Below, one piece after another: positions 11,644 through 26,980 of a stretch of 64,000 bases of DNA. A program made the position numbers and the translations under genes. Positions within the stretch are counted from its first letter, which is position 1. Each line of letters begins with the position of its first letter. The notes under the pieces are model-generated. The model was not told the origin of the DNA. It was given only the letters and a program-made list of their open reading frames with translations, and ran no database searches. The stretch comes from a virus (taxonomy: Duplodnaviria > Caudoviricetes), in the IMG/VR virus record IMGVR_UViG_3300009370_000001. The stretch is one strand, 5' to 3'.

Positions 11644-11889
11644 ATGACCTATTTTGTATATGGGATTACGGACTGTCCGGCCTGTCTCCGAGCGTGTGCA
11701 GACTTGATGGAAGCAGATTTAGAATATGTTTTTATAGAAACTGATTTTGCACCCACTTATCGATCTCAACTCAAAAAGCAATATCGACGCTCCACATTTC
11801 CTATTATTATTAGAGAGAGTGGGCCCGAAACGTTAATAATTGGGGGCCATGACGATTTAACCATCCATTTAGCCAAGCGTTCTGGTTGA
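11644..11889 (+). CDS. Glutaredoxin-like protein
   Basis: YGITDCPAC (CxxC), TFPII (cis-Pro), IIGGHDDL. Confidence 0.85.
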   Translation: MTYFVYGITDCPACLRACADLMEADLEYVFIETDFAPTYRSQLKKQYRRSTFPIIIRESGPETLIIGGHDDLTIHLAKRSG

Positions 11890-11930
11890 CAAAAACTTTA
11901 CTTGCAACTGATCCTCACGCGTGCTATATT
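11886..11930 (+). promoter_or_regulatory. Partial (double-box) copy of the repeated early-promoter element
   Basis: TTGACA 11886, TTGCAA 11902, 17-nt spacer, TGC-TATATT 11925. Confidence 0.6.
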
Positions 11931-11953
11931 ATGATCAGACACATACTTACTAT

Positions 11954-12202
11954 GTGGAACTTAAACGAGGAGACTTAGTAAGATGGGTAACAGACTGGGG
12001 GATTTATGCAGCGAGCGCGGATGGGTACGTCCAACGAGAATACCCACAATATGCTTACGGCGTCATAATGGAAGTATCCCATCGAGACCCCGATGCTGTA
12101 GTGGTTTATTGCTACGATTCCAAACACGAATTCGCGGAACAAGACACGTGGGTTATCCTGCATCTGGTTCACGACGAATTCGAGTTAGTAAGCGAGGGTT
12201 AA
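11954..12202 (+). CDS. Small xGDLV-family protein
   Basis: GTG start, ELKRGDLVRW; the upstream track start lies inside the promoter. Confidence 0.6.
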   Translation: MELKRGDLVRWVTDWGIYAASADGYVQREYPQYAYGVIMEVSHRDPDAVVVYCYDSKHEFAEQDTWVILHLVHDEFELVSEG

Positions 12203-12205
12203 AAT

Positions 12206-12481
12206 GTGTCTAAGGCGACCGAAGAAGAGGCGCTGGAAGCGCTTAAAAAAGAAATCCGGGTATGGTGTCACACACCATTTTTGGTTAATACAGGAACAGA
12301 TGACGGGGGGCGTTATCTGCAAATCTGGATCGAACGCCAGGAACCATCAGCACGTTTGGACGCCTGGATGGTAGAAATGCTCCCCGGTAGTAAATATATG
12401 GGTTGGCGCTTAATTGTAAGCAAGTGCCCACCCGACTATATAAGATTATTTATTTTAAATAAAAAACAAAAGGATTGGTAA
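12206..12481 (+). CDS. Hypothetical protein
   Basis: ORF in operon. Confidence 0.6.
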   Translation: MSKATEEEALEALKKEIRVWCHTPFLVNTGTDDGGRYLQIWIERQEPSARLDAWMVEMLPGSKYMGWRLIVSKCPPDYIRLFILNKKQKDW

Positions 12482-12825
12482 TGGAGGTTGGGGAACTGGT
12501 TTGTTTATACCGACGAAAGCATAAAGGGATTGGAATCGTCTTAGAAAAAGAAACGATTAGCGATGAAAAAATAAGAATAATAGAGATTGCTCAAAAAGCC
12601 GACTGGAAACAAAAAGAAGAACTAAAACGCAAAGCTCTTAGTGGGGCGTCTCAAAAAGGATTAATCGAAGCGGCCTTTCTCTATAACTTGTGGCAAGCGA
12701 ACGCGAAGCTCAAAAAGGATTTTGTTTATATTAAATGGTTTCAGTGTCCCTCGGAGTATGAACAGACAAAAACTACCACGGATGCTGATTGGTTTCCGGT
12801 TGATTGGGTGGGAAGAATAAACTAA
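12481..12825 (+). CDS. xGDLV-family protein
   Basis: MEVGELVCL...GIGIVL. Confidence 0.65.
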   Translation: MEVGELVCLYRRKHKGIGIVLEKETISDEKIRIIEIAQKADWKQKEELKRKALSGASQKGLIEAAFLYNLWQANAKLKKDFVYIKWFQCPSEYEQTKTTTDADWFPVDWVGRIN

Positions 12826-12841
12826 CTCTATACTTAGTTAT

Positions 12842-13111
12842 GTGGCAACTACTCACATTCCAGTCTACAAAATCGGGGATCTTGTAAAGTGTATTTATGA
12901 TCTATTCGATCACTACCAGTATTTCTGGGATCAAGAGCCCGCAAGTGGCTATCCTTTCCACGGGATTATCATAGATATCCAAGACAATATGCTGATGGAC
13001 GAAGAGGTTCACGAATACGGTTATGAGAAACTTTATATTGTTCGCTGTTTCGATGGACACGTCAGATTTTTTGCTCACTGGGAAATGCGGCTCGTGTCAA
13101 CATCTTCTTGA
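12842..13111 (+). CDS. xGDLV-family protein
   Basis: YKIGDLVK...GIIIDI; stop TGA lies inside TTGACA. Confidence 0.65.
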   Translation: MATTHIPVYKIGDLVKCIYDLFDHYQYFWDQEPASGYPFHGIIIDIQDNMLMDEEVHEYGYEKLYIVRCFDGHVRFFAHWEMRLVSTSS

Positions 13112-13151
13112 CAACTTTGTGGTTGACACCGGTATTAGAAGATGCTATATT
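13108..13151 (+). promoter_or_regulatory. Double-TTGACA sigma70-type promoter driving tRNA-Leu
   Basis: TTGACA 13108, TTGACA 13123, 17-nt spacer, TGC-TATATT 13146. Confidence 0.8.
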
Positions 13152-13159
13152 AAGAACAT

Positions 13160-13247
13160 GGCCGAGTGGTGGAATAGGTAGACACACCGGACTTAAAATC
13201 CGTTGATCATTATGATCGTGAGGGTTCAAGTCCCTCCTCGGCTACCA
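13160..13247 (+). tRNA. tRNA-Leu(TAA)
   Basis: Acceptor GGCCGAG/CTCGGCT, anticodon loop CT-TAA-AA, long variable arm, T-loop TTCAAGT, encoded CCA. Confidence 0.95.
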
Positions 13248-13259
13248 CCTTACATCTTC

Positions 13260-13303
13260 TTGACAACTTTTGGCTTGACCACACAAACTGGGCATGCTAT
13301 ATT
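13260..13303 (+). promoter_or_regulatory. Double-box promoter element directly after tRNA-Leu
   Basis: TTGACA 13260, TTGACC 13275, 17-nt spacer, TGC-TATATT 13298. Confidence 0.75.
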
Positions 13304-13360
13304 ATGAACACTGACCACATTAACATCTTCACCGACGAAGAAATCAACAAGGAGCTACGG

Positions 13361-13744
13361 ATGGGCACCCGCTCACACATTTATATTGAAACCGAACCAG
13401 GAAGATTTCTGGGAACTTACTGTCAGTTTGACGGCTATCCTTCCCATATGTTTCCACAACTTGAAAAGCGCAGCCATGACGAAGTATATAGTATTATCGT
13501 CAGAGGACAAACACGCGGTGGCTTGGTAGGCATTGCTGCTACGCCGTCTTCTCCTATTGAATATCAAGATGGAATGGGGGAAGCATCTTTTCTTTTTAAT
13601 CCGACAGACTATCTCGAAAGCACCTGCGTTAACTACGTTTATGTAAAGCGACTGGATGGAACGGTACTATGGCGGGAAACCCGCAACGCTGAACCTGGAA
13701 TCCCGATGCCCTGGTATAACACAGCACCCGAGGAGGAAGAATAA
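13361..13744 (+). CDS. Conserved phage hypothetical protein (MGTRS...YCQFDGYP family)
   Basis: AAGGAG RBS before ATG 13361; YCxxDGYP motif. Confidence 0.7.
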   Translation: MGTRSHIYIETEPGRFLGTYCQFDGYPSHMFPQLEKRSHDEVYSIIVRGQTRGGLVGIAATPSSPIEYQDGMGEASFLFNPTDYLESTCVNYVYVKRLDGTVLWRETRNAEPGIPMPWYNTAPEEEE

Positions 13745-13745
13745 A

Positions 13746-13967
13746 ATGATGTTTGAAGCAGGCGAAAAAGTTATTGTAATGGCAGGCAGTGTTCATTCTC
13801 CGTCCTATCTACAGGGCGAGAGCGGAATGATCCTTGAAGTATCGGGATCATCTGATTATGTACCTGAACATTATACTATTAAGTTTGAGAAAGAGACTCA
13901 TATTCTTTATGGGTCCGAACTACGGAGAGAAGAAAGTGAACAAGACGTGACGTATGAACTAAAATAA
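13746..13967 (+). CDS. xGDLV-like small protein
   Basis: FEAGEKVIV...GMILEV. Confidence 0.6.
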   Translation: MMFEAGEKVIVMAGSVHSPSYLQGESGMILEVSGSSDYVPEHYTIKFEKETHILYGSELRREESEQDVTYELK

Positions 13968-13973
13968 GTGGTT

Positions 13974-14128
13974 GGCCCCTGGAGTAATACTTAAGGACAT
14001 TCGGGTTCAATGTCTACAATGAACCTTGTACCCATCTGGTGAGGTGAAACCTGCGAGGGTAATGCAGGAGTGGAAAGTAGGCTAACGAGTGGAAGACGCG
14101 GTGAAGACAGCGTTCCTCTCCAGGGGCC
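13974..14128 (+). ncRNA. Candidate structured non-coding RNA (family not recognised)
   Basis: Intergenic; perfect 11-bp closing stem GGCCCCTGGAG/CTCCAGGGGCC; internal hairpins with complementary loops. Confidence 0.6.
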
Positions 14129-14144
14129 TTTACATTGATTTGAC

Positions 14145-14173
14145 TTGACAAAGAGAAGAAAATGAGATATATT
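14145..14173 (+). promoter_or_regulatory. sigma70-type promoter
   Basis: TTGACA-17 nt-TATATT; ATG 14180 at the expected +1. Confidence 0.65.
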
Positions 14174-14179
14174 ATACAT

Positions 14180-14386
14180 ATGAAAAAGGGTGACGTAGTT
14201 AAGTTTGTTTCTCCCCCAGGACTTCACCACTTGGATTCGGTGATGAACTGGAAACAGCAGAGTCCTGGTTTGGTCGTGGGGAGCAAAGACACTTCTCTCA
14301 AGAAGCGGTCTTATGAAGTGCTGTGGAAGAACGGCGAAAGAACTTTTGAATGGGAATCATATTTGGAGATTATTAGTAAAGCATGA
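14180..14386 (+). CDS. xGDLV-family protein, probably leaderless
   Basis: MKKGDVVKF...GLVV...YEVLW...YLEIISKA. Confidence 0.65.
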   Translation: MKKGDVVKFVSPPGLHHLDSVMNWKQQSPGLVVGSKDTSLKKRSYEVLWKNGERTFEWESYLEIISKA

Positions 14387-14562
14387 TTTATACAGTTATT
14401 TATACAGATTACAAAAACGATTTGAAGTCCGAGGTAACGGATGGTCCGATGGACCGACCCGAAGCCTGGAAGGAAATGAAACGAGAATACGGCACAGTGC
14501 TGGCAATGGTGCCTGGGAGTCATCCCGTGTATACCAGCGGCTCAATGGAGCGAAAAGATTAG
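14383..14562 (+). CDS. Hypothetical 59-aa protein (below the ORF-track cutoff)
   Basis: ATGA overlap with the previous gene; MIYTVIYTDYKNDLKSEVTDGP... Confidence 0.55.
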   Translation: MIYTVIYTDYKNDLKSEVTDGPMDRPEAWKEMKREYGTVLAMVPGSHPVYTSGSMERKD

Positions 14563-14622
14563 GAGACTGCTTACAGAGCATAAACAGTAAAGCTGGACGC
14601 TCAAAACATTAACCCCTATCCT

Positions 14623-14698
14623 GCGCCGGTAGCTCAGGGGTTAGAGCGTTGTTCTTATAAAGCAAATGTCGGTGGTTCAAGTCCACCCCGGCGTACCA
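14623..14698 (+). tRNA. tRNA-Ile(TAT)
   Basis: Acceptor GCGCCGG/CCGGCGT, anticodon stem TTGTT/AGCAA, loop CT-TAT-AA, T-loop TTCAAGT, CCA; 76 nt. Confidence 0.92.
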
Positions 14699-14705
14699 TT
14701 TTTTT

Positions 14706-14915
14706 ATGACGAGGATATATACTAATATGAGCCATCACTATGGAGAATACTGGTCAAGCTGGAGCCACCAGCCTGCCACACCTAAAGAGCCTGAACTGCT
14801 TGAAGAGATTAAAACATTTCTTTTGACTCTCCATGAGAGTGATAAAGCTGCGGAGTTACTCCAAAAAATAGAGGCGGAAGCCGCCAAAGCGAATAAGCCT
14901 AAAACTGATTTTTAA
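14706..14915 (+). CDS. Hypothetical protein
   Basis: ORF between tRNAs. Confidence 0.55.
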   Translation: MTRIYTNMSHHYGEYWSSWSHQPATPKEPELLEEIKTFLLTLHESDKAAELLQKIEAEAAKANKPKTDF

Positions 14916-15139
14916 TGTTACCAGAGATTGACTGGCTTGAACACCAAATAGCGCAACTGCGAGAGCGGTGCGATCAGCTTGAGAAAGAAAACTTTGAGCT
15001 TAAGCGATGCATTGGCCGAGCTATCACAAACCTGGAACGAGATAATCAGCAGACCCGAGAATACATTGAGAAAGAAGAAACGAAAATCGTAGCGTTCGCC
15101 CCCAACTTCAAGAAGCCGAAGTGGGAAACGCAAGATTAA
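14915..15139 (+). CDS. Hypothetical coiled-coil protein
   Basis: TAATG-coupled ORF. Confidence 0.6.
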   Translation: MLPEIDWLEHQIAQLRERCDQLEKENFELKRCIGRAITNLERDNQQTREYIEKEETKIVAFAPNFKKPKWETQD

Positions 15140-15150
15140 CCTTTCAATTT

Positions 15151-15226
15151 GGGTCCATAGCTCAATAGGTAGAGCATCGGACTTTTAATCCGCAGGTCGT
15201 GGGTTCGATTCCCACTGGACCCACCA
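15151..15226 (+). tRNA. tRNA-Lys(TTT)
   Basis: Acceptor GGGTCCA/TGGACCC, loop CT-TTT-AA, T-loop TTCGATT, CCA; 76 nt. Confidence 0.95.
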
Positions 15227-15244
15227 TTTTTTTAAGAGAGAACA

Positions 15245-15421
15245 ATGAAACAAGAACACTATATTATTCAAGAATATAATCGCAAGACTCAAAAATATAC
15301 GACGATAGGTGAAGCTCAAGGGCTCACTGCCGACGCTGCCAAACTCAAGTTTATTGAGCAGACCAACTGGAAGCCGCGCCGCAACATTATCCTTTTCGTC
15401 CAGCACCCCCTCTGTCGTTGA
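15245..15421 (+). CDS. Hypothetical 58-aa protein
   Basis: MKQEHYIIQEYNRK...; stop TGA lies inside TTGACA. Confidence 0.55.
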   Translation: MKQEHYIIQEYNRKTQKYTTIGEAQGLTADAAKLKFIEQTNWKPRRNIILFVQHPLCR

Positions 15422-15472
15422 CATTTACTTGACAACTTTGGGGTGGACAAGTGGCTTGCCCTATGCTATATT
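15418..15472 (+). promoter_or_regulatory. Triple-box early-promoter element
   Basis: TTGACA 15418, TTGACA 15429, TGGACA 15444, 17 nt, TGC-TATATT 15467. Confidence 0.8.
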
Positions 15473-15478
15473 GTATGT

Positions 15479-15568
15479 ATGATCAGCAAATGGCTATGGA
15501 TTCCGATTCTTCTGGTATACGGTTTCATCTTTGGAGCCAGCTACCTTCTAACCTCGTGGATGGTCTAA
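15479..15568 (+). CDS. Leaderless 29-aa hydrophobic peptide
   Basis: MISKWLWIPILLVYGFIFGASYLLTSWMV; ATG at the predicted +1; TAATG coupling to the next gene. Confidence 0.5.
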   Translation: MISKWLWIPILLVYGFIFGASYLLTSWMV

Positions 15569-15765
15569 TGAGCCCAGGCAACCTTGTAATGATTAAGCGT
15601 GCTGCTATCGGCGTGCCTGCTGGCACCCTCGCACTATGCTTGAAGCGCGACGAGAAGCGCGGAGATTATGACGAAGGCCATGAGATTTGGACAGTCCAGC
15701 TTATGCATGGGCAGCTACGGGGCATTGAGCGCCGGTATCTTGATATTGATTTGGAGATATTGTGA
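15568..15765 (+). CDS. xGDLV-family protein
   Basis: MSPGNLVMI...IWTVQL...DLEIL. Confidence 0.6.
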   Translation: MSPGNLVMIKRAAIGVPAGTLALCLKRDEKRGDYDEGHEIWTVQLMHGQLRGIERRYLDIDLEIL

Positions 15766-15965
15766 AAGTCGGTGACTTGGTAAAGAGCGCAGATCGTTTA
15801 GTTGGCAATCGGAATCGCATGCGCCTGGGAGTGATCGTAGAGGTAGACCCCGATAAAGCCGATCAACCGGGTTGTTTCGGGAGTTGTTTTATCCAGTGGA
15901 TAGGCGATGCAGATTGGACATTCGTGTACGAAGAAGATATTGAGGTAATCAATGAAGGTCGGTGA
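15762..15965 (+). CDS. MKVGDLV-family small protein (SH3/KOW-like barrel inferred)
   Basis: MKVGDLVK...LGVIVEV...IQW...DIEVINEGR. Confidence 0.75.
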   Translation: MKVGDLVKSADRLVGNRNRMRLGVIVEVDPDKADQPGCFGSCFIQWIGDADWTFVYEEDIEVINEGR

Positions 15966-16140
15966 TTTAGTAAGAAACCTTAACTCGGAAAGCGGTCTGC
16001 TTGGCGTTATTGTTTACTGGACAGATACCAAATGGCCCGACAACAATCAATGTACGAACCATCCAGTCGTACACTGGAACGACGGGCGCACAAGTTGGAT
16101 TATGGCGCATCGTGTGGAGATTATAAATGCAAATCGGTGA
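15952..16140 (+). CDS. MKVGDLV-family small protein
   Basis: MKVGDLVR...LGVIV...VHW...VEIINANR. Confidence 0.75.
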   Translation: MKVGDLVRNLNSESGLLGVIVYWTDTKWPDNNQCTNHPVVHWNDGRTSWIMAHRVEIINANR

Positions 16141-16351
16141 CATTGTAAGGGTACATTGGGGCGCATGCGACTGGTCCGGCACGGAAGGTGTTGACTGGGG
16201 ATATGGCGTTGGCGTTGTGACGGGCGATATTGTGTGGTGGGAGAACACACGGCGTCTTGTGTCTCCGTGCGGCGACGTAGAGATTCTATTTCGCGGCGAG
16301 CGCGTAAACTATAACCTTGGTCGGCTGGAGATTGTAAATGAAAGTCGGTGA
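16127..16351 (+). CDS. MKVGDLV-family small protein
   Basis: MQIGDIVR...VGVV...LEIVNESR. Confidence 0.75.
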   Translation: MQIGDIVRVHWGACDWSGTEGVDWGYGVGVVTGDIVWWENTRRLVSPCGDVEILFRGERVNYNLGRLEIVNESR

Positions 16352-16520
16352 CTTGGTGAGATATAAAGATTCACTCCGCGATGACGTGGGAGTTGTAATG
16401 AAAATACAAACCGAGGGATCGTGTTCAATCTTTGGTCACACAGTGATCGTACAGACAACCGATGGGATTTGCCGTCAATATACCGAAAAGAATCTGGAGA
16501 TTTTAAATGCAAGTCGGTGA
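16338..16520 (+). CDS. MKVGDLV-family small protein
   Basis: MKVGDLVR...VGVVMKI...LEILNASR. Confidence 0.75.
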   Translation: MKVGDLVRYKDSLRDDVGVVMKIQTEGSCSIFGHTVIVQTTDGICRQYTEKNLEILNASR

Positions 16521-16695
16521 CTTGGTAAAGATTGTGCAGTCAGCAATAGATCCGCTCAAGACTCCATTTTTGGAACAGGTCGGTGTGATTGTTAGAAAGA
16601 CTACACTTGAATCAGAACAAAACGATTGGTATGATGTATTAACGCGGGATAGGATTCACTCATTCCGCGCAGACTATTTGGAGAAGATAAAATGA
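16507..16695 (+). CDS. MKVGDLV-family small protein
   Basis: MQVGDLVK...VGVIV...YDVL...YLEKIK. Confidence 0.75.
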   Translation: MQVGDLVKIVQSAIDPLKTPFLEQVGVIVRKTTLESEQNDWYDVLTRDRIHSFRADYLEKIK

Positions 16696-16955
16696 AAGCA
16701 GGAGATTTAGTAACACTTTCGGCGTATGCGAATGGGCTTCAAGCCCTCCAGCGGTGGTCAGACCGCTTCCGCCAATACCATAAAAAGCAGCCCCTGGTGG
16801 GATTGGTGATTAAAATCTCCCCGTCTCGGTGGGCGTGGGAAGGGATGCAGTATGAAGTACGATGGATGGAGCCGCATGGGCCGAAAGGTCGGGAGGGTAA
16901 CTACGGCGTACACACATTCAACCGCAAAGATTTGAAGTTTGTGAGTCGAGGATAG
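16692..16955 (+). CDS. MKVGDLV-family small protein
   Basis: MKAGDLVT...VGLVIKI...YEVRW...DLKFVSRG. Confidence 0.75.
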   Translation: MKAGDLVTLSAYANGLQALQRWSDRFRQYHKKQPLVGLVIKISPSRWAWEGMQYEVRWMEPHGPKGREGNYGVHTFNRKDLKFVSRG

Positions 16956-17332
16956 TGGAAAATCTCACTCCAGAAAATTTTTTCCTGGTATTCCAGGTAT
17001 TTATCAAAGTTTTAGTTATATGGAGTCCCGTATTGTTTGGGACGTGGCTTTATATGTATTACACGCGCCCTAAAAAGCGCACAACCCAACGCAACAAAGG
17101 AAAGAAGATAATGAGAGCAGGCGAAGTATTTGAATGGCTGGATCAGGGACCAGCGGTATTGTTGGCACCATGTAAGATTGCCGATCCTATTCCCGTAGAA
17201 AAGAAGACCGAGTTTCTAAAAGATCCCGAAGGATTCTTGAAGGCATGGCCCAGCGAACAAGGCTGGACTATTAAACTTCTGGAAAGCGGCGACATCATCG
17301 ACGTGCATGAAGACACGTTGACATACTCTTGA
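16955..17332 (+). CDS. Hypothetical protein with N-terminal TM helix
   Basis: Hydrophobic N-terminus; stop lies in the second TTGACA box. Confidence 0.6.
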   Translation: MENLTPENFFLVFQVFIKVLVIWSPVLFGTWLYMYYTRPKKRTTQRNKGKKIMRAGEVFEWLDQGPAVLLAPCKIADPIPVEKKTEFLKDPEGFLKAWPSEQGWTIKLLESGDIIDVHEDTLTYS

Positions 17333-17372
17333 CAAGATTAACCTTGACTTACCGTCGCTGGCATGGTATATT
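17318..17372 (+). promoter_or_regulatory. Triple-box early-promoter element
   Basis: TTGACA 17318, TTGACA 17329, TTGACT 17344, 17 nt, TGG-TATATT 17367. Confidence 0.85.
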
Positions 17373-17378
17373 ATTAGC

Positions 17379-17510
17379 ATGAAAACGAAGAAAGTACCCA
17401 AGGCTCGTAACTGGCTCGCTGTCCATGCGTGGAATCGCAAGGGTGGAGCTATCCCTAACAAGAAGAAAGTTATGAATAAGAAGGCATGCAGGAAGAAGGT
17501 GCGAGCATGA
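17379..17510 (+). CDS. Leaderless 43-aa highly basic peptide
   Basis: MKTKKVPKARNWLAVHAWNRKGGAIPNKKKVMNKKACRKKVRA; ATG at the predicted +1; ATGA coupling to the next gene. Confidence 0.55.
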   Translation: MKTKKVPKARNWLAVHAWNRKGGAIPNKKKVMNKKACRKKVRA

Positions 17511-17707
17511 GCAAATATGATTATGTTCCGTTTTTTGAGCGCGGCGATCTGGTAGAGATCAGCTTTGGCTATGGAGCTAAGAGCCTGGGCCTTTTTATGC
17601 ATTATGAAGGATGGGCTGACGATCTTCGCGCTAAGGTTTTTTGGGATGGTCAAGACCTTTCCACTCCGGTCGTGCAACTTACACTAATCAAGAGAGCAGC
17701 AGAATGA
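17507..17707 (+). CDS. xGDLV-family protein
   Basis: FERGDLVEI...LGLF...AKVFW. Confidence 0.65.
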   Translation: MSKYDYVPFFERGDLVEISFGYGAKSLGLFMHYEGWADDLRAKVFWDGQDLSTPVVQLTLIKRAAE

Positions 17708-18003
17708 ATATCTGGGTATTTATGGGACGCTGCGAAGGGGATCTATTCGCCACCACACACCTAACGGAGAAAGGCGCAGTCCTGGCGGCACTGGCGGATA
17801 TTCTGGAATATCTGGGAATCGACAGCGACGAAGATGCGCGATCTAACCCCGAAGATGCCGATGCCCTCTTGCCCTGGGATTACGACGAGCTTAAAACATT
17901 TCCCACCACGCAGCTATGGGAAGTCTACGCAGGATATCGTGAACATTTGTGGGATGATTTTTCGTATGAGATTGACATTCATCAGACACAGGTGACAGGA
18001 TGA
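17704..18003 (+). CDS. Hypothetical protein
   Basis: Coupled ORF. Confidence 0.6.
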   Translation: MNIWVFMGRCEGDLFATTHLTEKGAVLAALADILEYLGIDSDEDARSNPEDADALLPWDYDELKTFPTTQLWEVYAGYREHLWDDFSYEIDIHQTQVTG

Positions 18004-18734: not shown

Positions 18735-18738
18735 TCGA

Positions 18739-18813: not shown

Positions 18814-19019
18814 AGGTCGGTGATTTGGTGCGACAGCGCGACGTTGGCATGCCTCGGCAGAATCGGAGAGTGGGCGTGGTGCGCGAGATCCGAAAGAAGG
18901 ATCACGCACGCTGGAAGGGTGATGGCTGGGATTCAGTCAGAGTATATTGGGGCGACAACCAGCGCATGAACGAGCGGTGGACTGTGCGCGGGTCATTAGA
19001 AGTTATTGATGGCGCTTGA
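18810..19019 (+). CDS. MKVGDLV-family small protein
   Basis: MKVGDLVR...VGVVREI...VRVYW...SLEVIDGA; stop in TTGACA. Confidence 0.75.
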   Translation: MKVGDLVRQRDVGMPRQNRRVGVVREIRKKDHARWKGDGWDSVRVYWGDNQRMNERWTVRGSLEVIDGA

Positions 19020-19070
19020 CATTCTCTTTACAACATTAACCTTGACTACACCCCATTTACATGCTATATT
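19016..19070 (+). promoter_or_regulatory. Triple-box early-promoter element
   Basis: TTGACA 19016, TTTACA 19027, TTGACT 19042, 17 nt, TGC-TATATT 19065. Confidence 0.85.
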
Positions 19071-19094
19071 ATAGGGGCAATCAGGAGAAAATAG

Positions 19095-19328
19095 ATGGCA
19101 GTTTATGAAGCAACCGTCACCCGTGTGCGCTATGTTCACACAGTTATCGAGGTAGAAGCCGATAGCCCCGAGGAGGCACGAGAACAGGCACAACAAGTTA
19201 TTGATGCTGGCGTCTTTGGTCAACCAAATGTGACGCACCCTTATCCAGAACCCGTTTATCAATGGACAACGCACAACCGCGAAGGTGTGCTGGGTCACGA
19301 CGAATATGAGATTGTCGACATCGCTTGA
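19095..19328 (+). CDS. Hypothetical protein (single-gene cassette between two promoter elements)
   Basis: AGGAG RBS; stop in TTGACA. Confidence 0.7.
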   Translation: MAVYEATVTRVRYVHTVIEVEADSPEEAREQAQQVIDAGVFGQPNVTHPYPEPVYQWTTHNREGVLGHDEYEIVDIA

Positions 19329-19379
19329 CATTTACTTTACAACTTAACGATTGACAAACCCCCTGAAAAATGGTATATT
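19325..19379 (+). promoter_or_regulatory. Triple-box early-promoter element
   Basis: TTGACA 19325, TTTACA 19336, TTGACA 19351, 17 nt, TGG-TATATT 19374. Confidence 0.85.
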
Positions 19380-20126: not shown

Positions 20127-20237
20127 GGAAGGATAACATGACAGGTATGGCAACATTCACATTTATTTGTATTGCGACGGGATTTAGCGCGTTTGCAGTT
20201 GCAGTAAAACGAGAGATTTGTATTAAAAGAGGAAAAA

Positions 20238-20486: not shown

Positions 20487-20734
20487 AAATGACACTTGTT
20501 ATTGATAGTGAAGATTTGGATGGTATTAAAGATTCATTTAAGATCATCAAGATGATGAACGATAAATATAACACGCCAGCGCGTCAGTATAATGATCGTT
20601 CATTCGGAAAGATTCGCTACATTAAACTTCTGCGTAAATACGCGAAGTTTGCGGCTGATGAAGATTTTGACGTTGATTCGCTCAAAGCCGCTAAACGCTT
20701 TGCCGATGCGTTGTGGGCAGGCGATTTTGATTGA
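20483..20734 (+). CDS. Hypothetical protein
   Basis: Coupled ORF; stop in TTGACA. Confidence 0.65.
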   Translation: MKMTLVIDSEDLDGIKDSFKIIKMMNDKYNTPARQYNDRSFGKIRYIKLLRKYAKFAADEDFDVDSLKAAKRFADALWAGDFD

Positions 20735-20785
20735 CATTTACTTGACATGATAATGATTGACAGCAACGCCTTTTCATGCTATATT
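20731..20785 (+). promoter_or_regulatory. Triple-box early-promoter element
   Basis: TTGACA 20731, TTGACA 20742, TTGACA 20757, 17 nt, TGC-TATATT 20780. Confidence 0.9.
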
Positions 20786-20812
20786 ATAGGGGCAAATAAG
20801 GAGAGAACCACA

Positions 20813-21139
20813 ATGAGATTTGAGTTTACAGAAGAAGAAGTCGGCGCTTTGATCGAGGCACTCGGCGCGTGGATGGAGCAACCGAGCGAATGGGAAGGCG
20901 AGGAGTGGTTGCGACGGCAGGACATCGGCGCAGACCTTGACCTTGAGTTGCGCGAGGGGCTGGCCACTGGTGATGGAAACGTCGTCGATGATGCAGCCGA
21001 GGCTTTTATTCAGGCAGGCATCGACGCCCGCGAACAAGCTAAGGCAACATCCCGGGCCGCAACGCGCCGTGAACAAAGGCTGGCCGAACTGGCGAAAGGC
21101 ACCACGGCTACCCTCGCCAACGACCCCGCAGACTGGTAG
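20813..21139 (+). CDS. Hypothetical protein
   Basis: AAGGAG RBS before ATG 20813. Confidence 0.7.
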   Translation: MRFEFTEEEVGALIEALGAWMEQPSEWEGEEWLRRQDIGADLDLELREGLATGDGNVVDDAAEAFIQAGIDAREQAKATSRAATRREQRLAELAKGTTATLANDPADW

Positions 21140-21145
21140 CATAAA

Positions 21146-21355
21146 ATGAAAGTCGGTGATTTGGTTAAATGGTCCTGGCACCTTGATACAGATTGGGCGA
21201 CGACGCATTTTATGGGCGTCATCGTGGGCTCCAAGCTATACAAGATGGCGAATGGGCTGGATAAATGTATCGTGCTGCAAGTATTGACCAGGAATGGCCA
21301 AACCATCCAGGTCCGAGAAGACGAAGCAACCTTAAAGTTGATCGCCGCGTCTTGA
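21146..21355 (+). CDS. MKVGDLV-family small protein
   Basis: MKVGDLVKW...MGVIV; stop in TTGACA. Confidence 0.75.
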   Translation: MKVGDLVKWSWHLDTDWATTHFMGVIVGSKLYKMANGLDKCIVLQVLTRNGQTIQVREDEATLKLIAAS

Positions 21356-21406
21356 CATTCTCTTGACAACTTTCCTATTGACTCTCACCTATCCAGGTGG
21401 TATAAT
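21352..21406 (+). promoter_or_regulatory. Triple-box early-promoter element
   Basis: TTGACA 21352, TTGACA 21363, TTGACT 21378, 17 nt, TGG-TATAAT 21401. Confidence 0.9.
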
Positions 21407-21435
21407 GATGGCATATCAAGTAAGGAGATATATCA

Positions 21436-21657
21436 ATGGCTACTAACCTTCCCTATGTAATGACCTTTGCACAAGCGTGCGACTACTTCACCGACGAGAT
21501 TCTGCCCTTGGTTCAAGAGCAGCATGAGCAAGACGGTGTACCCGATTGGCCCGCCCGATGCGAAACCTGGAACAACTGGACCGATAGCCTATGCAAAGAC
21601 GGACAGATCAGCGACTGGCAGTATATGAACTGGACACACCCGCCCTGCAACGGTTGA
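21436..21657 (+). CDS. Hypothetical protein (single-gene cassette)
   Basis: AAGGAG RBS; WNNWTDSLCKDGQI; stop in TTGACA. Confidence 0.7.
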   Translation: MATNLPYVMTFAQACDYFTDEILPLVQEQHEQDGVPDWPARCETWNNWTDSLCKDGQISDWQYMNWTHPPCNG

Positions 21658-21708
21658 CATTCACTTTACAACATTAACCTTGACATCCACACCCCAGCAT
21701 GCTATATT
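21654..21708 (+). promoter_or_regulatory. Triple-box early-promoter element
   Basis: TTGACA 21654, TTTACA 21665, TTGACA 21680, 17 nt, TGC-TATATT 21703. Confidence 0.9.
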
Positions 21709-21733
21709 GTATGCATAGAACGGAGAAAACTAT

Positions 21734-22522
21734 ATGGGAAACTATAACGGAACAGTCCACTGCGGGCATTGCTACCAACAAGGACACAACCGGAGATCGT
21801 GCCCGAGAAAACTGGAGAGCCTGCAACGGCAATACGCCGAGGCTAAGGAAAGCGGCAATGACAATAGCTATACACAGTATTACGCGCAGCAGATTGCAAA
21901 GATGACCGGCACGAACCCCGAGACTGGGGCGACACGCAAGCGTCGGAATGAAAGCTATGGGCGCAAGTGTTCCTATTGCCGCGAGGGTGGCCATTCGCGC
22001 CGGACTTGTCCAACGCTCAAAGAAGACCAGCGCAACTATCGCCGCATGTCGTCAGTAGTGCGGAAAGATATGCTGGCTCGCATGCAGGAGCATGGTTTCG
22101 GTGTCGGTTCCCTGGTAACGATGACAGCGAACCAGTGGAATCAAGCAGCAGGCGAGTATCAGGAGGTAAAGAACGCTTATCTGGTGACAAACATTAAGTG
22201 GGACAGCATTGGACCCCACAACCAGCACGGCAATAGCTGTGTCAAAGTGATGTCGGTCAAAGACCCGAGCAATCAAGTCTGGATGACGATGCCCACGGAG
22301 GTCAGCGGAAGCGAAGAGAACCGCTACAGCCGCGCCCCGGAGATTGTTGGGGCTACAGCCCCGGAAAAGATTAACCCTCCGTCAGCGTGGACAGCAGGAG
22401 CCCGAGCAGAAGAAGGCGAGAACGCACCTTTTGAGAAGGGTGCCCAGCGTCAAGGATACTGGTGGCACAACGAGGGCAGCGTTCTCCTGGATCGCTGGGC
22501 AGGGATCGAGTCAACCGAGTAG
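21734..22522 (+). CDS. Protein with two CCHC zinc knuckles
   Basis: CGHCYQQGHNRRSC and CSYCREGGHSRRTC. Confidence 0.8.
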   Translation: MGNYNGTVHCGHCYQQGHNRRSCPRKLESLQRQYAEAKESGNDNSYTQYYAQQIAKMTGTNPETGATRKRRNESYGRKCSYCREGGHSRRTCPTLKEDQRNYRRMSSVVRKDMLARMQEHGFGVGSLVTMTANQWNQAAGEYQEVKNAYLVTNIKWDSIGPHNQHGNSCVKVMSVKDPSNQVWMTMPTEVSGSEENRYSRAPEIVGATAPEKINPPSAWTAGARAEEGENAPFEKGAQRQGYWWHNEGSVLLDRWAGIESTE

Positions 22523-22577
22523 TTGACATTCCCTTTACAACTTGGGGGTAGACAGCCCCCAGGTTCTATGGTATAAT
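22523..22577 (+). promoter_or_regulatory. Triple-box early-promoter element
   Basis: TTGACA 22523, TTTACA 22534, TAGACA 22549, 17 nt, TGG-TATAAT 22572. Confidence 0.85.
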
Positions 22578-22600
22578 GCTTGCATACGATGGAGAAAGCG

Positions 22601-22765
22601 ATGAGCCCCTGGATGACCGAGAGACTAAACACCTTGAAAACAGAGAACCAGCCCGAGCGTCCCGCGCTCCGCATCCCGACACCGCGCCCGGCACCGGCAC
22701 GTCGCCCCGAGCGTCGGCCCGAACCCACTCGCGGCGTTATTATCGTTGACTTGACAATCAGTTGA
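22601..22765 (+). CDS. Small Pro/Arg-rich protein ending RGVIIVDL
   Basis: GGAG RBS; stop in the second TTGACA box. Confidence 0.6.
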   Translation: MSPWMTERLNTLKTENQPERPALRIPTPRPAPARRPERRPEPTRGVIIVDLTIS

Positions 22766-22805
22766 CAACTTCCTTGTTGACAGACCTATTTACCCATGCT
22801 ATATT
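22751..22805 (+). promoter_or_regulatory. Triple-box early-promoter element
   Basis: TTGACA 22751, TTGACA 22762, TTGACA 22777, 17 nt, TGC-TATATT 22800. Confidence 0.9.
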
Positions 22806-22846
22806 ATTAGCGTAAGAAACAAAGAACCCCGAACCCGGAACCAATC

Positions 22847-23935
22847 ATGTCAGTAGACTTCAAGACCTTTCAAACCGTAGTAGCTCATATCCTCGATTAC
22901 AAGTTTCCCGTGCTGGTGCGCGGTAGGCATGGCGTCGGCAAATCCGAGGTAGTGTATCAGATTGCTGCTGATCGCAACCTTCCGATTGTCGAGCGTCGTG
23001 CAAGCCAGATGACAGAGGGTGACTTGCTTGGTCTTCCCGATACCTGTGACACCGCTATCAGTGGGCGCAAGGCTACCACGTGGAACGCTCCAGATTGGCT
23101 TGTGACGGCTTGTGAGCAACCCGTGGTACTCTTCCTCGATGAAGTGGACCGGGCAACGATGGAAGTCCGTCAGGGACTCTTTGAGTTGACCGACAGTCGC
23201 AAGATCAACGGCTGGAAGCTGCACCCCGAAACCCTCATTGTCGCCGCTGTCAACGGTGGCGAGCATGGCGCACAATATCAGGTAGGAGAAATGGACCCTG
23301 CCGAGTTGGATCGCTGGACCGTGTTCGATGTCGAGCCTTCCGTAGAAGACTGGCTCACCTGGGGCAAGGACAATGTTAATGAAGTGCTGTGGGACTTCGT
23401 GAACCACAACCGTCAACACCTTGAGCATCAGGGCGAGCATGAGCCGAACAAAGTTTATCCTTCTCGCCGTAGCTGGAAGCGGTTTAATGATACCGCTGTT
23501 CCCACTGGCGCGTTTACCGAGGATGGACAGAACGGCGAGTTGCTGTATCAGCTTGCAACCGCCTTTGTCGGCTTTGAAGCCGCTGTAGCACTTAAGGACT
23601 TCGTTGAGAAGTATGAGTGGCAAGTGACGGTAGAGGATCTGCTTGACAACGGACAGATCGAGCGCACCGAGAAGTGGGGCATCAATGACCATGCTGCGAT
23701 GATCGAGAAGCTGGACGCCTCCGGTGTCCTGGCTGAAACGCTCAACGAGACACAGGTTAGTAACCTTGCCACCTATTTCGTCTCGCTGCCCTCGGAAGTG
23801 GCCATGAAGTTGTGGACCGTCCTGGGAGACACCGACAACATTGAAAATGTCGTAGCACTCCACAAGGCAGAATCGGCCTCTGGACAGAAGGTTAGTGAAC
23901 ACCTTGTGGAAATCCTGGGAGGCTCCCAGGAGTGA
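22847..23935 (+). CDS. MoxR/dynein-related AAA+ ATPase
   Basis: Walker A GRHGVGKS, Walker B VLFLDEVDRA, AAVN sensor, MDPAELDRW. Confidence 0.92.
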   Translation: MSVDFKTFQTVVAHILDYKFPVLVRGRHGVGKSEVVYQIAADRNLPIVERRASQMTEGDLLGLPDTCDTAISGRKATTWNAPDWLVTACEQPVVLFLDEVDRATMEVRQGLFELTDSRKINGWKLHPETLIVAAVNGGEHGAQYQVGEMDPAELDRWTVFDVEPSVEDWLTWGKDNVNEVLWDFVNHNRQHLEHQGEHEPNKVYPSRRSWKRFNDTAVPTGAFTEDGQNGELLYQLATAFVGFEAAVALKDFVEKYEWQVTVEDLLDNGQIERTEKWGINDHAAMIEKLDASGVLAETLNETQVSNLATYFVSLPSEVAMKLWTVLGDTDNIENVVALHKAESASGQKVSEHLVEILGGSQE

Positions 23936-24141
23936 GGATCTTGAAGGCTGGCGACCTACTAATCAGGGAGCGCGATAAGCGCCCCTGTATCGTCTTGGAG
24001 GTCCAAGAGAGTACGAAACCCCAGTGGGGCACCCTGGACGCCAGCAGACGGCGATACAGGCTCTTTGAGAGCCATTCTGGAGTGTCCCGCTGGGTAGTCG
24101 ATACCGAGGTTGCCGTCAAATACACCCTAACAACCGATTGA
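23932..24141 (+). CDS. xGDLV-family small protein
   Basis: LKAGDLLI...CIVLEV; stop in TTGACA. Confidence 0.65.
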   Translation: MRILKAGDLLIRERDKRPCIVLEVQESTKPQWGTLDASRRRYRLFESHSGVSRWVVDTEVAVKYTLTTD

Positions 24142-24192
24142 CATTCACTTGACAACTTTTCCCTGGACAAACCTACGTACCCATGCTATATT
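24138..24192 (+). promoter_or_regulatory. Triple-box early-promoter element
   Basis: TTGACA 24138, TTGACA 24149, TGGACA 24164, 17 nt, TGC-TATATT 24187. Confidence 0.85.
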
Positions 24193-24217
24193 GTATGTGT
24201 AGAAAGGAAAGAACCCT

Positions 24218-25474
24218 ATGAGCGACGACAAACCCACTCCCTTTGACTTGAACAAGCACACGGCGCGGCTGCTTATGCGCGAGCCGTTTTTCGCTGGGCT
24301 GTCTCGGCGGATCGACAAGACCCCGACGACTGAGATCCCGACTGCCGGTGTTCGCATTAATCCCGAACGGGCACAGTTTGAGTTGATGTATAACCCTGAC
24401 TTCATGGCGAGCCTTAGCGACAAGCACCGACTTGCGATCTTGAAGCATGAGTTTTACCATATCATCTTTGAGCATGTGACACACCGCAAGCCTGCCGATG
24501 GCATTAGCCGCCTGGACAACATTGCGATGGATCTGGCAATCAACGGCTTGCCCGACATGAAGACTAACCTTCCCAACGATGCCGAGCCAGGACCACCGAC
24601 CGGATCGGCTGGTGAGCCCATGAAGGCATGCATCCCCGGAGAAGGGCCATTCGCTCACTTGCCTTGTGAGAAGTCCTATGAGTGGTACAAGGCAGCACTC
24701 CAAGACATGCAGAAAGAGAAGCCAGAAGGCGAGCCAGGGGAGCCAGGACAAGGCGAGCCCGGTGATGGCGATCCCTTCGGCGGCATGGATGCGCTGGACG
24801 ATCACGGCGAGTTTGGCGAGGGTCAAGGCACCGCAGACGAGATCGCTAAGGAACGTCTGAAGGAAGCGGTAAAGCAGGCAGCAGAGGAAGCCGAGAAGGC
24901 TAATAACTGGGGCACTGTTTCAGGAAACACCCGGCGCGACATTATGGATCGCATCGCTACTAAGGTTGACTGGCGCAAGGTGTTGCGTTATTTCGTGAAG
25001 ACCACGCAACGCTCCGACAAGACCAGCACGCCGAGGAAACTGAACCGCAGATTTCCACGCATCCACGCAGGAAAGCGCGTCCGTCGTCACGCTCGCATTG
25101 CTATCAGCATCGACCAGTCTGGATCGGTGGATGATAAAATGCTTCAAGCGTTCTTCTCCGAGTTGAACAAGTTGGCCGAGATTGCCGAGTTTACTGTTAT
25201 CCCATTCGATTCAGTAGTGGGCGAGGATAAGATTTATGTATGGAAGAAGGGTGCAACCCGCAGAACCGAGCGCGTTATGTGCGGCGGGACTTGCTTTAAT
25301 GCTCCAACCAAGTACGTGAACGAACACGGATTCGATGGACATATTATCCTTACTGACCTGATGGCACCTAAGCCGATGGCGAGCAAGTGTCAACGCATGT
25401 GGATGACGACTAAGGCATACGCGGCGCGTCCCTACTTCCAGACTAACGAGCGAGTCATCGCAATCGACAGTTGA
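24218..25474 (+). CDS. DUF2201-type metallopeptidase + vWA-like domain protein
   Basis: IPTAGV, ILKHEFYH (HExxH), NIAMDLAIN, SIDQSGSV (MIDAS), GGTCF, ILTDL. Confidence 0.88.
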   Translation: MSDDKPTPFDLNKHTARLLMREPFFAGLSRRIDKTPTTEIPTAGVRINPERAQFELMYNPDFMASLSDKHRLAILKHEFYHIIFEHVTHRKPADGISRLDNIAMDLAINGLPDMKTNLPNDAEPGPPTGSAGEPMKACIPGEGPFAHLPCEKSYEWYKAALQDMQKEKPEGEPGEPGQGEPGDGDPFGGMDALDDHGEFGEGQGTADEIAKERLKEAVKQAAEEAEKANNWGTVSGNTRRDIMDRIATKVDWRKVLRYFVKTTQRSDKTSTPRKLNRRFPRIHAGKRVRRHARIAISIDQSGSVDDKMLQAFFSELNKLAEIAEFTVIPFDSVVGEDKIYVWKKGATRRTERVMCGGTCFNAPTKYVNEHGFDGHIILTDLMAPKPMASKCQRMWMTTKAYAARPYFQTNERVIAIDS

Positions 25475-25524
25475 CAAGCACTTGACATTTCGGGGTAGAC
25501 AACCTGCCCCGAATATGTTATATT
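25471..25524 (+). promoter_or_regulatory. Triple-box early-promoter element
   Basis: TTGACA 25471, TTGACA 25482, TAGACA 25496, 17 nt, TGT-TATATT 25519. Confidence 0.85.
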
Positions 25525-25552
25525 GCTATATACAAACAGGAGATCCCTACTT

Positions 25553-26362
25553 ATGGCTCGCACAACCTACGCCGACCGCTTGAAAGCCCTTATCACCAAC
25601 CCCGCTATGTCTGCGCGTGACTGCCAGTTTGCAAGCAGCTTGCTTGCCTACTACGTCAAGCGCAAGTCGCTGACCAGTGGCCGCGCTCGCTGTGTGCGCG
25701 AGCTTGAGGCACGGTACAGCGCCGAGGCAGTAGCCGAGCGTGCAGCCCGCACCGCACCGCTAACGGCTCGATTGCAGGCGCTCACTGCCCGTGTGACCGA
25801 GGGTTCATGGGCTGGCGGGTTCGTGGAGTCTTTGACCGAGCAAGTGGCGTCAGGACGCAACCTAAGCCCACGCCAGATCGAGATCCTGGAGAAGATCGAG
25901 AGCGAGCATAGCGACGAGGCTATTAATGCTGCCGCTTCCTGGGATGCCGACTTCTCCGATGACATGCGCGACCGGCTGACCGTTGCGGCACGTTATTATC
26001 GTCGCACTGGCTACTTTACTAACCTTGTGGATCGTGCGTTGACCCCTGATGGCCAACCGACCGCATTTATTCCGACTGAAAAGCAGTATCGGAAGGTCAC
26101 CGAAAACAAGTATGCACAGAAGGTATTGACCGCGCACTATGACGCGCCAAAGTACGCCACTGGCTCGATGGTGCAACTGCGCCCGAGTTGCGGCTATCTC
26201 GCACGTTCCAAAGCAGGCGACAAGCCCTGTGTCGTTATCTCGACCACGGAGCCCATCGTGAGCGCGTGCAAGGGTGCAAAGATGTATCGGATCTTGCCCA
26301 TCGGATCCGCAACTATGATCACAATCGAGGAGCGTCACATTAAGAAGGCGCGAGGAGTATAA
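25553..26362 (+). CDS. Hypothetical protein
   Basis: AGGAG RBS before ATG 25553. Confidence 0.75.
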   Translation: MARTTYADRLKALITNPAMSARDCQFASSLLAYYVKRKSLTSGRARCVRELEARYSAEAVAERAARTAPLTARLQALTARVTEGSWAGGFVESLTEQVASGRNLSPRQIEILEKIESEHSDEAINAAASWDADFSDDMRDRLTVAARYYRRTGYFTNLVDRALTPDGQPTAFIPTEKQYRKVTENKYAQKVLTAHYDAPKYATGSMVQLRPSCGYLARSKAGDKPCVVISTTEPIVSACKGAKMYRILPIGSATMITIEERHIKKARGV

Positions 26363-26364
26363 AC

Positions 26365-26670
26365 ATGAAGAGAATCCTAACCAACAGTAAAGTGATCGAG
26401 GCATGGCAGCGCGGAGAACGCGCCGCTAACCATCGTGGCACACTTCAATGTTACAGTGATGGCACGCTGTATAGCTACAACCTGCATATCGGCCAGCGCA
26501 CACCGTCAGGAGTGTGCATTGTGGGCGATTACACGGCTCCTGGCGGGGGGTTCAAGTCAGTGACTACCTCGTGCCATGTCGGACGCGCCAAGCGCGTTCC
26601 TGGGGTCACTGTGATGCACCCGCTTGTGTGGGTCGATTCTCCGTTGAGTAACGAGGAAATCCCATTCTAA
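26365..26670 (+). CDS. Hypothetical protein
   Basis: GAGGAG RBS; YSYNLHIG...SVTTSCHV pattern. Confidence 0.7.
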   Translation: MKRILTNSKVIEAWQRGERAANHRGTLQCYSDGTLYSYNLHIGQRTPSGVCIVGDYTAPGGGFKSVTTSCHVGRAKRVPGVTVMHPLVWVDSPLSNEEIPF

Positions 26671-26683
26671 CCCGAGACAGATT

Positions 26684-26929
26684 ATGGAAGACAACAATAT
26701 CATTAACCTTGTCGAAATCCTTGAGGAGAAGGAAAGACAGAAAGAGAGAGAAGAAGAAATGGAAAAGGCCGAGCTACGCGATCAACTGCAATGGGTGTTG
26801 CAGAAACTCCATGAGAAGAACATCACCTATCGAGCAGAAGACGAAGAAGAAATAGGGTTTGATGCTTATGAGCGAGTTCCTAAACGTAACTGGTTCCAGC
26901 GTTTTCTGGACCGCTTTCGATACGATTGA
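26684..26929 (+). CDS. Hypothetical acidic protein
   Basis: Stop in TTGACA. Confidence 0.65.
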   Translation: MEDNNIINLVEILEEKERQKEREEEMEKAELRDQLQWVLQKLHEKNITYRAEDEEEIGFDAYERVPKRNWFQRFLDRFRYD

Positions 26930-26980
26930 CACACACTTGACAACCTAAACCTTGACAGTCACCCCGAAAAGTGCTATATT
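26926..26980 (+). promoter_or_regulatory. Triple-box early-promoter element
   Basis: TTGACA 26926, TTGACA 26937, TTGACA 26952, 17 nt, TGC-TATATT 26975. Confidence 0.9.

Follow-up and report, generated by a model that had tools for sequence, protein, structure and literature searches.

Why would a phage promoter carry the −35 hexamer three times over? The question is raised by a stretch of viral DNA of 64,000 nucleotides (Duplodnaviria; Caudoviricetes; IMG/VR virus record IMGVR_UViG_3300009370_000001), which is called the window here. Its plus strand holds twelve units in which a TTGACA hexamer (box 1) is followed at +11 by TTGACA or TTTACA (box 2), at a further +15 (once +14) by a third hexamer of the same kind (box 3) and then, after a spacer of 17 nt, by an extended −10 of the form TGnTATAWT; +11 and +15 are counted from the start of one box to the start of the next. 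We find that these units are sigma70-type promoter cassettes, that is, complete expression cassettes for the small accessory genes of a large phage. As for the two additional boxes, the explanation that we think probable, judging from sequence and spacing, is that the units serve the host polymerase in a marine T4-like phage and that the double TTGACA element upstream promotes recruitment through a new type of sequence.

Anatomy of the cassettes and their conservation in relatives

The twelve units of the window are built to a common plan. Box 1 is TTGACA in every one of them, box 2 is TTGACA in eight and TTTACA in four, and box 3 is the most variable of the hexamers (TTGACA in five, TTGACT in three, TGGACA in two, and TAGACA in two). 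The spacer between box 3 and the −10 measures 17 nt in each unit, the −10 reads TGnTATATT in ten cases and TGnTATAAT in two, always with the TG, and a Shine-Dalgarno sequence and an ATG follow 19–24 nt past it. Expressed as information per position, box 1 reaches 2.00 bits, box 2 1.84, box 3 1.68, and the −10 1.89, against 0.7–1.2 for the spacers; the conservation of boxes 1 and 2 thus equals or exceeds that of the real −35. The pattern TTGACA-N5-TTKACA-N9-TNGAC matches the window 11 times, always on the plus strand, and did not occur once in 100 shuffles that preserved dinucleotide frequencies. Box-to-box distances show sharp maxima at 11 nt (14 times), 15 nt (13 times), and 26 nt (11 times). 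In the window, the upstream double-box element always comes with a promoter and never alone, and three further units consist of a box of the second type plus a −35, with a degenerate box 1. All fifteen start coordinates and box contents listed by an initial annotation of this DNA are as it described them: the 11/15/17 geometry is seen at the twelve positions, with 11/14 in the single unit for which it was stated, and the two-box versions are present where claimed (Table 1). Its further remarks, that boxes 1 and 2 are often better kept than the −35 amid variable spacers and that single-box promoters elsewhere in the window lack the extra boxes, also hold, the latter for the sigma70-like promoters near 31708, 56949, 59306, and 60809.

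The same annotation had made conservation of the geometry in related phages a point on which its proposal could fail. The outcome speaks strongly for the proposal, as a motif search places more than 200 cassettes with 11/15 spacing on about 60 viral contigs. The scan of IMG/VR returned 154 sites in 89 stretches from these contigs, nearly all with the full design, and a looser pattern gave 209–224 non-redundant cassettes. Their consensus can be written c-TTGACA-TTCwC-TTGACA-ACTT, five variable nucleotides, TTGAC, the spacer, TGnTATAWT, and a short conserved leader with AAGGAG. Each of five complete relatives (185–205 kb) has 4–10 copies, on a single strand and within one region of 10–15 kb, and the reversed control pattern has no match in any of the five. 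The feature is real, far beyond chance, and conserved across a clade.

Three observations go beyond the pattern that was used for retrieval. First, when the extended −10 was taken as the sole anchor and the count restricted to sites that do not match the retrieval pattern, TTGACA and TTTACA pile up 23, 38, and 49 nt upstream (sometimes 37 and 48), and the two upstream hexamers are always 11 apart. Second, the boxes come in pairs or not at all: among 127 core promoters in the retrieved loci, both upstream boxes are present in 91 and missing in 36, and a single one never occurs; these loci were fetched by the motif, which biases the proportions and leaves the all-or-none pairing unbiased. Third, conservation extends outside the hexamers, to the TT that follows box 1 and the ACTT that follows box 2; both of these boxes also keep the A at their sixth position, which box 3 does not. 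The nearest long relative of the window, G019, has five exact matches to the pattern and one more under the looser version. There (G019:C1:58521-63263; L207, L208) box 3 is TAGAC in five cassettes out of five, so that the real −35 is weakened throughout the lineage, next to boxes 1 and 2 that keep the consensus.

The phage to which the window belongs is an uncultured marine T4-like phage, and the cassette block is its variable (hyperplastic) gene region. All five complete cassette-bearing relatives encode the T4 major capsid family Gp23, with a capsid protein only 35–45% identical to that of any cultured phage, and the metagenomes containing window DNA are marine or seawater. The GroEL of the window is 70–83% identical to the GroEL of further contigs of the clade. 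A megablast search of 12 kb of the window against cultured phages found no match, so that there is no close cultured phage at the DNA level; a tblastn search with an open reading frame (ORF) of 866 aa gave no match either, and a blastn search of one cassette against cultured phages gave chance matches only (E=5). RB49, T4, KVP40, S-PM2, and HTVC008M contain 0–1 matches even to the two-box pattern. The design is common to a whole clade of marine T4-like phages without a cultured member. A scan of bacterial and archaeal genomes with a 21-mer returned 8 stretches, of which three contain full cassettes and the others look like chance. The full cassettes lie in records of metagenome-assembled genomes (MAGs), two in a 2.8-Mb WOR-3 MAG "chromosome" (CP070664.1; L090 and L095) and one in a 3.7-kb contig of a Bacteroidetes MAG (L094). 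They are most likely phage DNA that was binned or assembled into the MAG, and the records therefore give no clue to the host.

Upstream stop codons, module borders and the likeness to PeSLs

The cassettes are tied to the genes on both of their sides. The ORF upstream ends at the TGA of box 1 in nine of the twelve window units and at that of box 2 in one, and the C-termini thus formed are unrelated. Among 209 cassettes in relatives (L001-L089), the upstream stop lies in box 1 in 108 and in box 2 in 19, and the frequencies for box 1, in the window and in relatives, are far above the one in three expected from random phase. The notion that the TGAs were placed as stops in all three frames had to be rejected, since boxes 2 and 3 share a frame and only two frames are covered.

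Homology between the window and its relatives also stops and starts at the cassettes. The segment 22750–25468 aligns with G019 from cassette to cassette, i.e., from the unit at 22751 to just before that at 25471, and between 15.9 and 20.4 kb the order of blocks is shuffled in comparison with the same genome. For two other relatives (L046 and L066), the alignment extends from the gene start at 22845 to 25468, where the following cassette starts; in L065, homology is lost at 26679 and found again from 26922 on, 4 nt ahead of the cassette at 26926. These alignments suggest that the cassettes mark the borders at which gene modules are exchanged, as PeSLs do elsewhere among T4-type phages.

PeSLs (promoter-early stem-loop cassettes) are repeated units in the hyperplastic regions of T4-type phages, described in RB49/phi1, T4/PST, and KVP40/nt-1 (Arbiol et al. 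2010, PMC2839356; Comeau et al. 2014, PMC4122927). They consist of an upstream stop codon in an AT-rich stretch, a sigma70-like −35 and −10, a polyG/polyC stem-loop of variable place, a Shine-Dalgarno sequence, and a start codon. Recombination between PeSLs gives mini-circles and shuffles ORFans (PMC2839356, PMC4122927). The likeness to the units of the window is extensive. First, both are repeated cassettes of about 60–90 bp in hyperplastic regions of T4-like genomes, and the setting agrees in its particulars: Gp23 in five of five complete relatives, clustering in one region of 10–15 kb, and ORFans downstream. Second, both combine an upstream stop codon with a sigma70-type −35, 17-nt spacer, and −10, a Shine-Dalgarno sequence, and the start codon of a small ORFan, and in our units these parts follow one another in this order, with the stop at the 5' end. 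Third, both flank the segments that have been inserted, replaced, or rearranged from one relative to another. The differences concern two parts. In place of the AT-rich part that precedes the −35 in PeSLs, our units have a 22-bp double TTGACA element, and phased TTGACA boxes are not described in the PeSL papers (PMC2839356, PMC4122927). The G/C stem-loop that defines PeSLs occurs only in a minority of the cassettes here: in the window, strong hairpins are found only at the units starting at 22523 and 25471, and over 224 cassettes a perfect hairpin (at least 5 bp with at least three G-C pairs) is present in 12.9% against 8.1% in shuffles, with a mean z-score of the minimum free energy of −0.57 and a z below −2 in 9%. 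Hence, the stem-loop is not a regular part of these units. PeSL cassettes are the closest known systems, of which our units are a distinct variant. Gene content and the PeSL precedent together suggest that the promoters are early ones.

This likeness gives substance to an explanation that requires no role of the boxes in transcription at all. Boxes 1 and 2 would be duplicates of the −35 that arose by slippage and are kept by copying from cassette to cassette, and any benefit would be evolutionary, as long stretches of identity for the shuffling of modules and as a ready-made stop for whichever gene comes to lie upstream. PeSLs do recombine, and degraded ones carry multiple mis-spaced copies of the −35 and −10 that were ascribed to slippage (PMC4122927); homology blocks end exactly at cassettes, relatives differ by a shuffled gene order, and in more than half of the 209 cassettes the upstream stop comes from box 1. 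Wholesale copying, however, would not leave the boxes invariant and the 5- and 9-nt spacers between them variable. Boxes and spacing alike are maintained between genomes that share proteins of only 50–70% identity, and it is box 3 that drifts, not boxes 1 and 2. Homologous recombination, moreover, needs no particular sequence, which leaves −35 look-alikes at helical spacing without an explanation. The explanation is weakened by these facts, and we now regard it as rather improbable.

What might read the two upstream boxes

The alternative to a functionless repeat is a protein that binds it, and the position of the element constrains which. If the transcription start site is taken to lie 7 nt after the −10, which puts the −10 itself at −12 to −7, then box 3 is the −35, box 2 spans −50 to −45, box 1 −61 to −56, and the whole conserved block −62 to −41. 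The recruitment mechanism that we favour would then comprise 1) a core promoter, made of box 3 and the TGn-extended −10, read by the host sigma70 RNA polymerase; 2) a Shine-Dalgarno sequence and a start codon within about 25 nt of this core; 3) boxes 1 and 2 acting as a single upstream element of 22 bp; 4) two copies, or two domains, of one protein that would hold the element from one side of the helix, with the polymerase on the core, as suggested by the 11-bp repeat, the all-or-none pairing, and the fixed distance to the −35; and 5) an increase in polymerase recruitment to phage promoters, in the manner of a UP element or of a class I activator site. Since the promoters look early, the reader should already be there at time zero; it might belong to the host, as a polymerase part or a regulator, or be a protein that enters together with the phage DNA. 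In G019, the drift of the −35 next to perfect boxes 1 and 2 suggests that recruitment depends in part on these two boxes.

Known upstream elements offer two models for such an arrangement. UP elements, known from the work of Estrem and Gourse, are sites of the alpha-CTD, on which their effect depends. They are A/T-rich, with A- and T-tracts, and extend from about −59 to −38 as two subsites roughly 10–11 bp apart; strong T4 early promoters, a subject of Hinton's review of T4 transcription, combine UP, −35, TGn, and −10. The cassettes resemble them in having a conserved extra element of about 20 bp at around −60 to −40, with halves one helical turn apart, ahead of a near-consensus extended −10, in a T4-like phage that must outcompete host promoters. 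With the assumed start site, the block and its half-sites 11 bp apart fall where a UP element would. Relative to the UP subsites at −42 and −52, the boxes are shifted by roughly half a helical turn, and this shift, together with the fact that the repeated unit is a −35 hexamer, suggests reading through the major rather than the minor groove. The second model is provided by class I sites of OmpR/PhoB-type response regulators, proteins of the tandem winged-helix kind, which are direct repeats of 10–11 bp, such as the TT(A/T/C)ACA repeats of Bacillus subtilis PhoP. Here, too, hexamers of the TTnACA type are repeated directly with a periodicity of 11 bp upstream of the −35, with the difference that the site is part of every cassette and stands at one fixed distance. 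A third system of T4-like phages is more remote. In T4 middle promoters, the MotA box TGCTT centred at −30 replaces the −35 and AsiA remodels sigma region 4; as in the cassettes, a phage-specific box marks a class of promoters, but the cassettes retain the −35 and have their extra boxes upstream of it. Two simpler ideas were discarded. The consensus sequences of IHF, CRP, and marbox sites, compared by eye, do not fit the boxes. Boxes 1 or 2 could not serve as the −35 of overlapping promoters either, as the consensus contains no −10-like hexamer 16–18 nt downstream of them.

Could the reader be the host sigma70 itself? Its region 4 would dock on boxes 1 and 2 as spare sites, a landing pad or decoy that speeds up polymerase loading and re-initiation or titrates polymerase off host genes. 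Boxes 1 and 2 are exact −35 consensus hexamers, with the preferred C just before them, their sole common variant (TTTACA) is a usual −35 variant, and no conserved candidate for a phage DNA-binding protein was found in all cassette-bearing genomes. Yet two holoenzymes cannot fit 11 bp apart, nor can one fit 15 bp from a bound one, so that docking leaves the strict spacing and the all-or-none pairing unexplained. It does not account either for the conservation of the TT after box 1, the ACTT after box 2, and the A at position 6. We know of no precedent for spare sigma70 docking boxes, and none came up in full-text literature searches, which likewise yielded no account of phage promoters with phased extra boxes of the −35 type. 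We therefore judge this role of sigma70 unlikely.

A phage protein with the fold of sigma region 4 is a further candidate, and relatives of the window do encode one. It is a stand-alone protein of 79–90 aa with a Cys-rich N-terminus, invariant cysteines C13, C24, C29, and C41, and a region 4.2 helix-turn-helix; it was found in all five complete genomes first tested, scores above the Pfam cut-off for Sigma70_r4, and has as its best solved relatives region 4 of primary sigma factors, including a crystal with −35 DNA. Its gene lies 4–6 kb before GroEL, in an operon near GMP-reductase-like and ClpP-like genes, and its 222 loci in IMG/VR, with none in cultured phages, follow the same distribution as the cassettes. 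Such a protein might bind the boxes and switch the cassettes on or off. Against this, the gene is absent from three cassette-bearing genomes of high completeness (G007, 95%; G008, 100%; G016, 92%), from the window, and from the sequence before GroEL in the nearest relatives of the window (G019, L186, and L204; 39 kb of upstream sequence in G019). Two of the four base-reading residues of sigma70 are altered (SFARIKQ against TRERIRQ in sigma), and the product of a phage gene would be missing at time zero. The protein is therefore not the general reader. The interpretation given by the initial annotation is supported in part: the units are sigma70-type promoters of a phage gene block with a conserved extra element of fixed geometry, and sites for sigma region 4 or an HTH regulator that would recruit or switch RNA polymerase are a candidate mechanism. 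The gene has been lost in some sublineages, including that of the window, and its product could be a binder of the beta-flap or a switch of promoters. That it binds the boxes and controls the cassettes now seems to us very improbable.

The search for other phage-encoded readers was equally unproductive. No Trans_reg_C (OmpR-type) domain is encoded in the five complete relatives, and the DNA-binding domain of MotA (MotCF) is absent from G001, G002, and G008 in a search in which T4 scores 7e-71. A search for AsiA found none, a weak negative because there was no positive control and nothing scored anywhere. The candidate readers that remain are a host component, either a part of the polymerase or a regulator, or a protein that arrives with the phage DNA.

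The recruitment mechanism has several points against it. No reader was found among the candidates tested, i.e., the stand-alone sigma region 4 protein, OmpR-type regulators, MotA, and AsiA. Boxes 2 and 3 are 15 bp apart, about 1.4 helical turns, which puts the upstream boxes off the face on which sigma region 4 sits at the −35. The element, unlike a UP element, is not A/T-rich, lacks A/T tracts, and is a direct repeat of the −35 hexamer. The identity of its sequence could be maintained in part by recombination between cassettes and not by selection on binding, and an upstream site could serve to shut promoters off instead of activating them. With these points taken into account, we retain recruitment as the probable role. 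We hold only tentatively, and with clear doubt, to the more detailed proposal that boxes 1 and 2 represent a novel type of upstream element, a repeat of −35 look-alikes read through the major groove by a factor present when the DNA enters the cell, which would give the clade priority access to the polymerase. Such a factor might come from the host, as a regulator or as a polymerase part that is used in an unfamiliar way, or be injected as a protein from the phage head.

Strong early promoters of phages have been a textbook source of knowledge on promoter strength, and a class with two extra −35-like boxes at fixed positions on the helix, kept more strictly than the −35 itself, falls outside the current picture of UP, −35, TGn, and −10. 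Its hundreds of occurrences in a widespread clade of marine phages without a cultured member amount to a natural replicated experiment. Should the boxes raise recruitment, they would be useful as a small transferable element for strong expression and as a means of spotting the early regions of such phages in metagenomic data. Otherwise, they would exemplify how recombination of cassettes can fix odd sequence features. If reading through the major groove proves true, an abundant marine T4-like clade would obtain its priority access to the host polymerase by a means that replaces the A/T-rich UP elements and Alt-type tricks of T4.

The cassette block, its genes and individual units

All genes of the cassette block are on the plus strand, and those driven by cassettes are ORFans, tRNAs, and a pair of genes encoding an AAA_5 ATPase and a DUF2201/VWA protein. 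A Pfam search of the genes behind the cassettes assigned a family to this pair only and left the rest as ORFans. The G+C content is about 55% at 22–28 kb against about 40% in the rest of the window, which makes a G+C-rich island within the block. The island includes the AAA_5 and DUF2201/VWA genes as a two-gene module (22751–25474; about 55% G+C), in which each gene has its own triple-box promoter. Many relatives keep this module as a block that ends right before the following cassette. The window also carries GroEL, PhoH, and tail-fibre-like genes, one tmRNA, and four tRNA genes (Leu-TAA, Ile-TAT, Lys-TTT, and Asn-GTT). Coordinates are given in Table 1.

Table 1. Promoter units of the window, associated genes, and stand-alone sigma region 4 genes of relatives (positions are those of the window unless preceded by the name of a relative)
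Feature	Position	Strand	Details
Two-box promoter	11886..11930	+	TTGACA box, 16 nt before TTGCAA −35; 17-nt spacer; TGCTATATT
Two-box promoter	13108..13151	+	Box-2-type TTGACAACTT; +15 TTGACA; 17 nt; TGCTATATT; directly before tRNA-Leu; box 1 degenerate
Two-box promoter	13260..13303	+	TTGACAACTT; +15 TTGACC; 17 nt; TGCTATATT
Degenerate variant	14129..14173	+	Absent from the list of the initial annotation; TTTACA; +11 TTGACT; +5 TTGACA; 17 nt; TATATT without TG
Triple-box cassette	15418..15472	+	Box 3 TGGACA; upstream stop is TGA in box 1 (15419-15421)
Triple-box cassette	17318..17372	+	Upstream ORF stop is TGA in box 2
Triple-box cassette	19016..19070	+	Upstream ORF stop is TGA in box 1 (19017-19019)
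Triple-box cassette	19325..19379	+	Upstream ORF stop is TGA in box 1 (19326-19328)
Triple-box cassette	20731..20785	+	Upstream ORF stop is TGA in box 1
Triple-box cassette	21352..21406	+	−10 TATAAT; upstream ORF stop in box 1
Triple-box cassette	21654..21708	+	Upstream ORF stop in box 1
Triple-box cassette	22523..22577	+	Box 3 (TAGACA) in loop of GGGGG/CCCCC hairpin
Triple-box cassette	22751..22805	+	Ahead of AAA_5 ATPase gene; fourth partial box abuts box 1
Triple-box cassette	24138..24192	+	Ahead of DUF2201/VWA gene; upstream ORF stop in box 1
Triple-box cassette	25471..25524	+	11/14 spacing; box 3 (TAGACA) within 10-bp hairpin; upstream stop in box 1
Triple-box cassette	26926..26980	+	Upstream ORF stop in box 1; near-identical copy in relative L065
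AAA_5 (MoxR-like) ATPase gene	22847-23935	+	
DUF2201 metallopeptidase/VWA protein gene	24218-25474	+	
tmRNA, full-length	52363-52784	+	Rfam RF00023, 112.5 bits; tag peptide ANNNNNFESVRLAA
Stand-alone sigma region 4 gene	L098:1833-2093	+	
Stand-alone sigma region 4 gene	L099:1886-2131	+	
Stand-alone sigma region 4 gene	L100:1894-2154	-	
Stand-alone sigma region 4 gene	L101:1857-2129	+	
Stand-alone sigma region 4 gene	L102:1838-2077	+	

Two details of single units deserve mention. The partial fourth box at the cassette ahead of the AAA_5 gene reads GTTGAC, directly adjoins box 1 (22745-22756 for the two together), and provides the stop codon of the upstream ORF; in appearance it is a copy made by slippage. 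In many units, the −10 is part of a short inverted repeat extending beyond the likely start site, as at 21700-21720, 24184-24205, and 26972-26992 (e.g., TATGCATA in the window and GGTATAA-TGG-TTATACC in relatives such as L007, L048, L060, and others). A dimeric shut-off protein could use this repeat as its operator, or the repeat could have arisen by chance in A/T-rich DNA.

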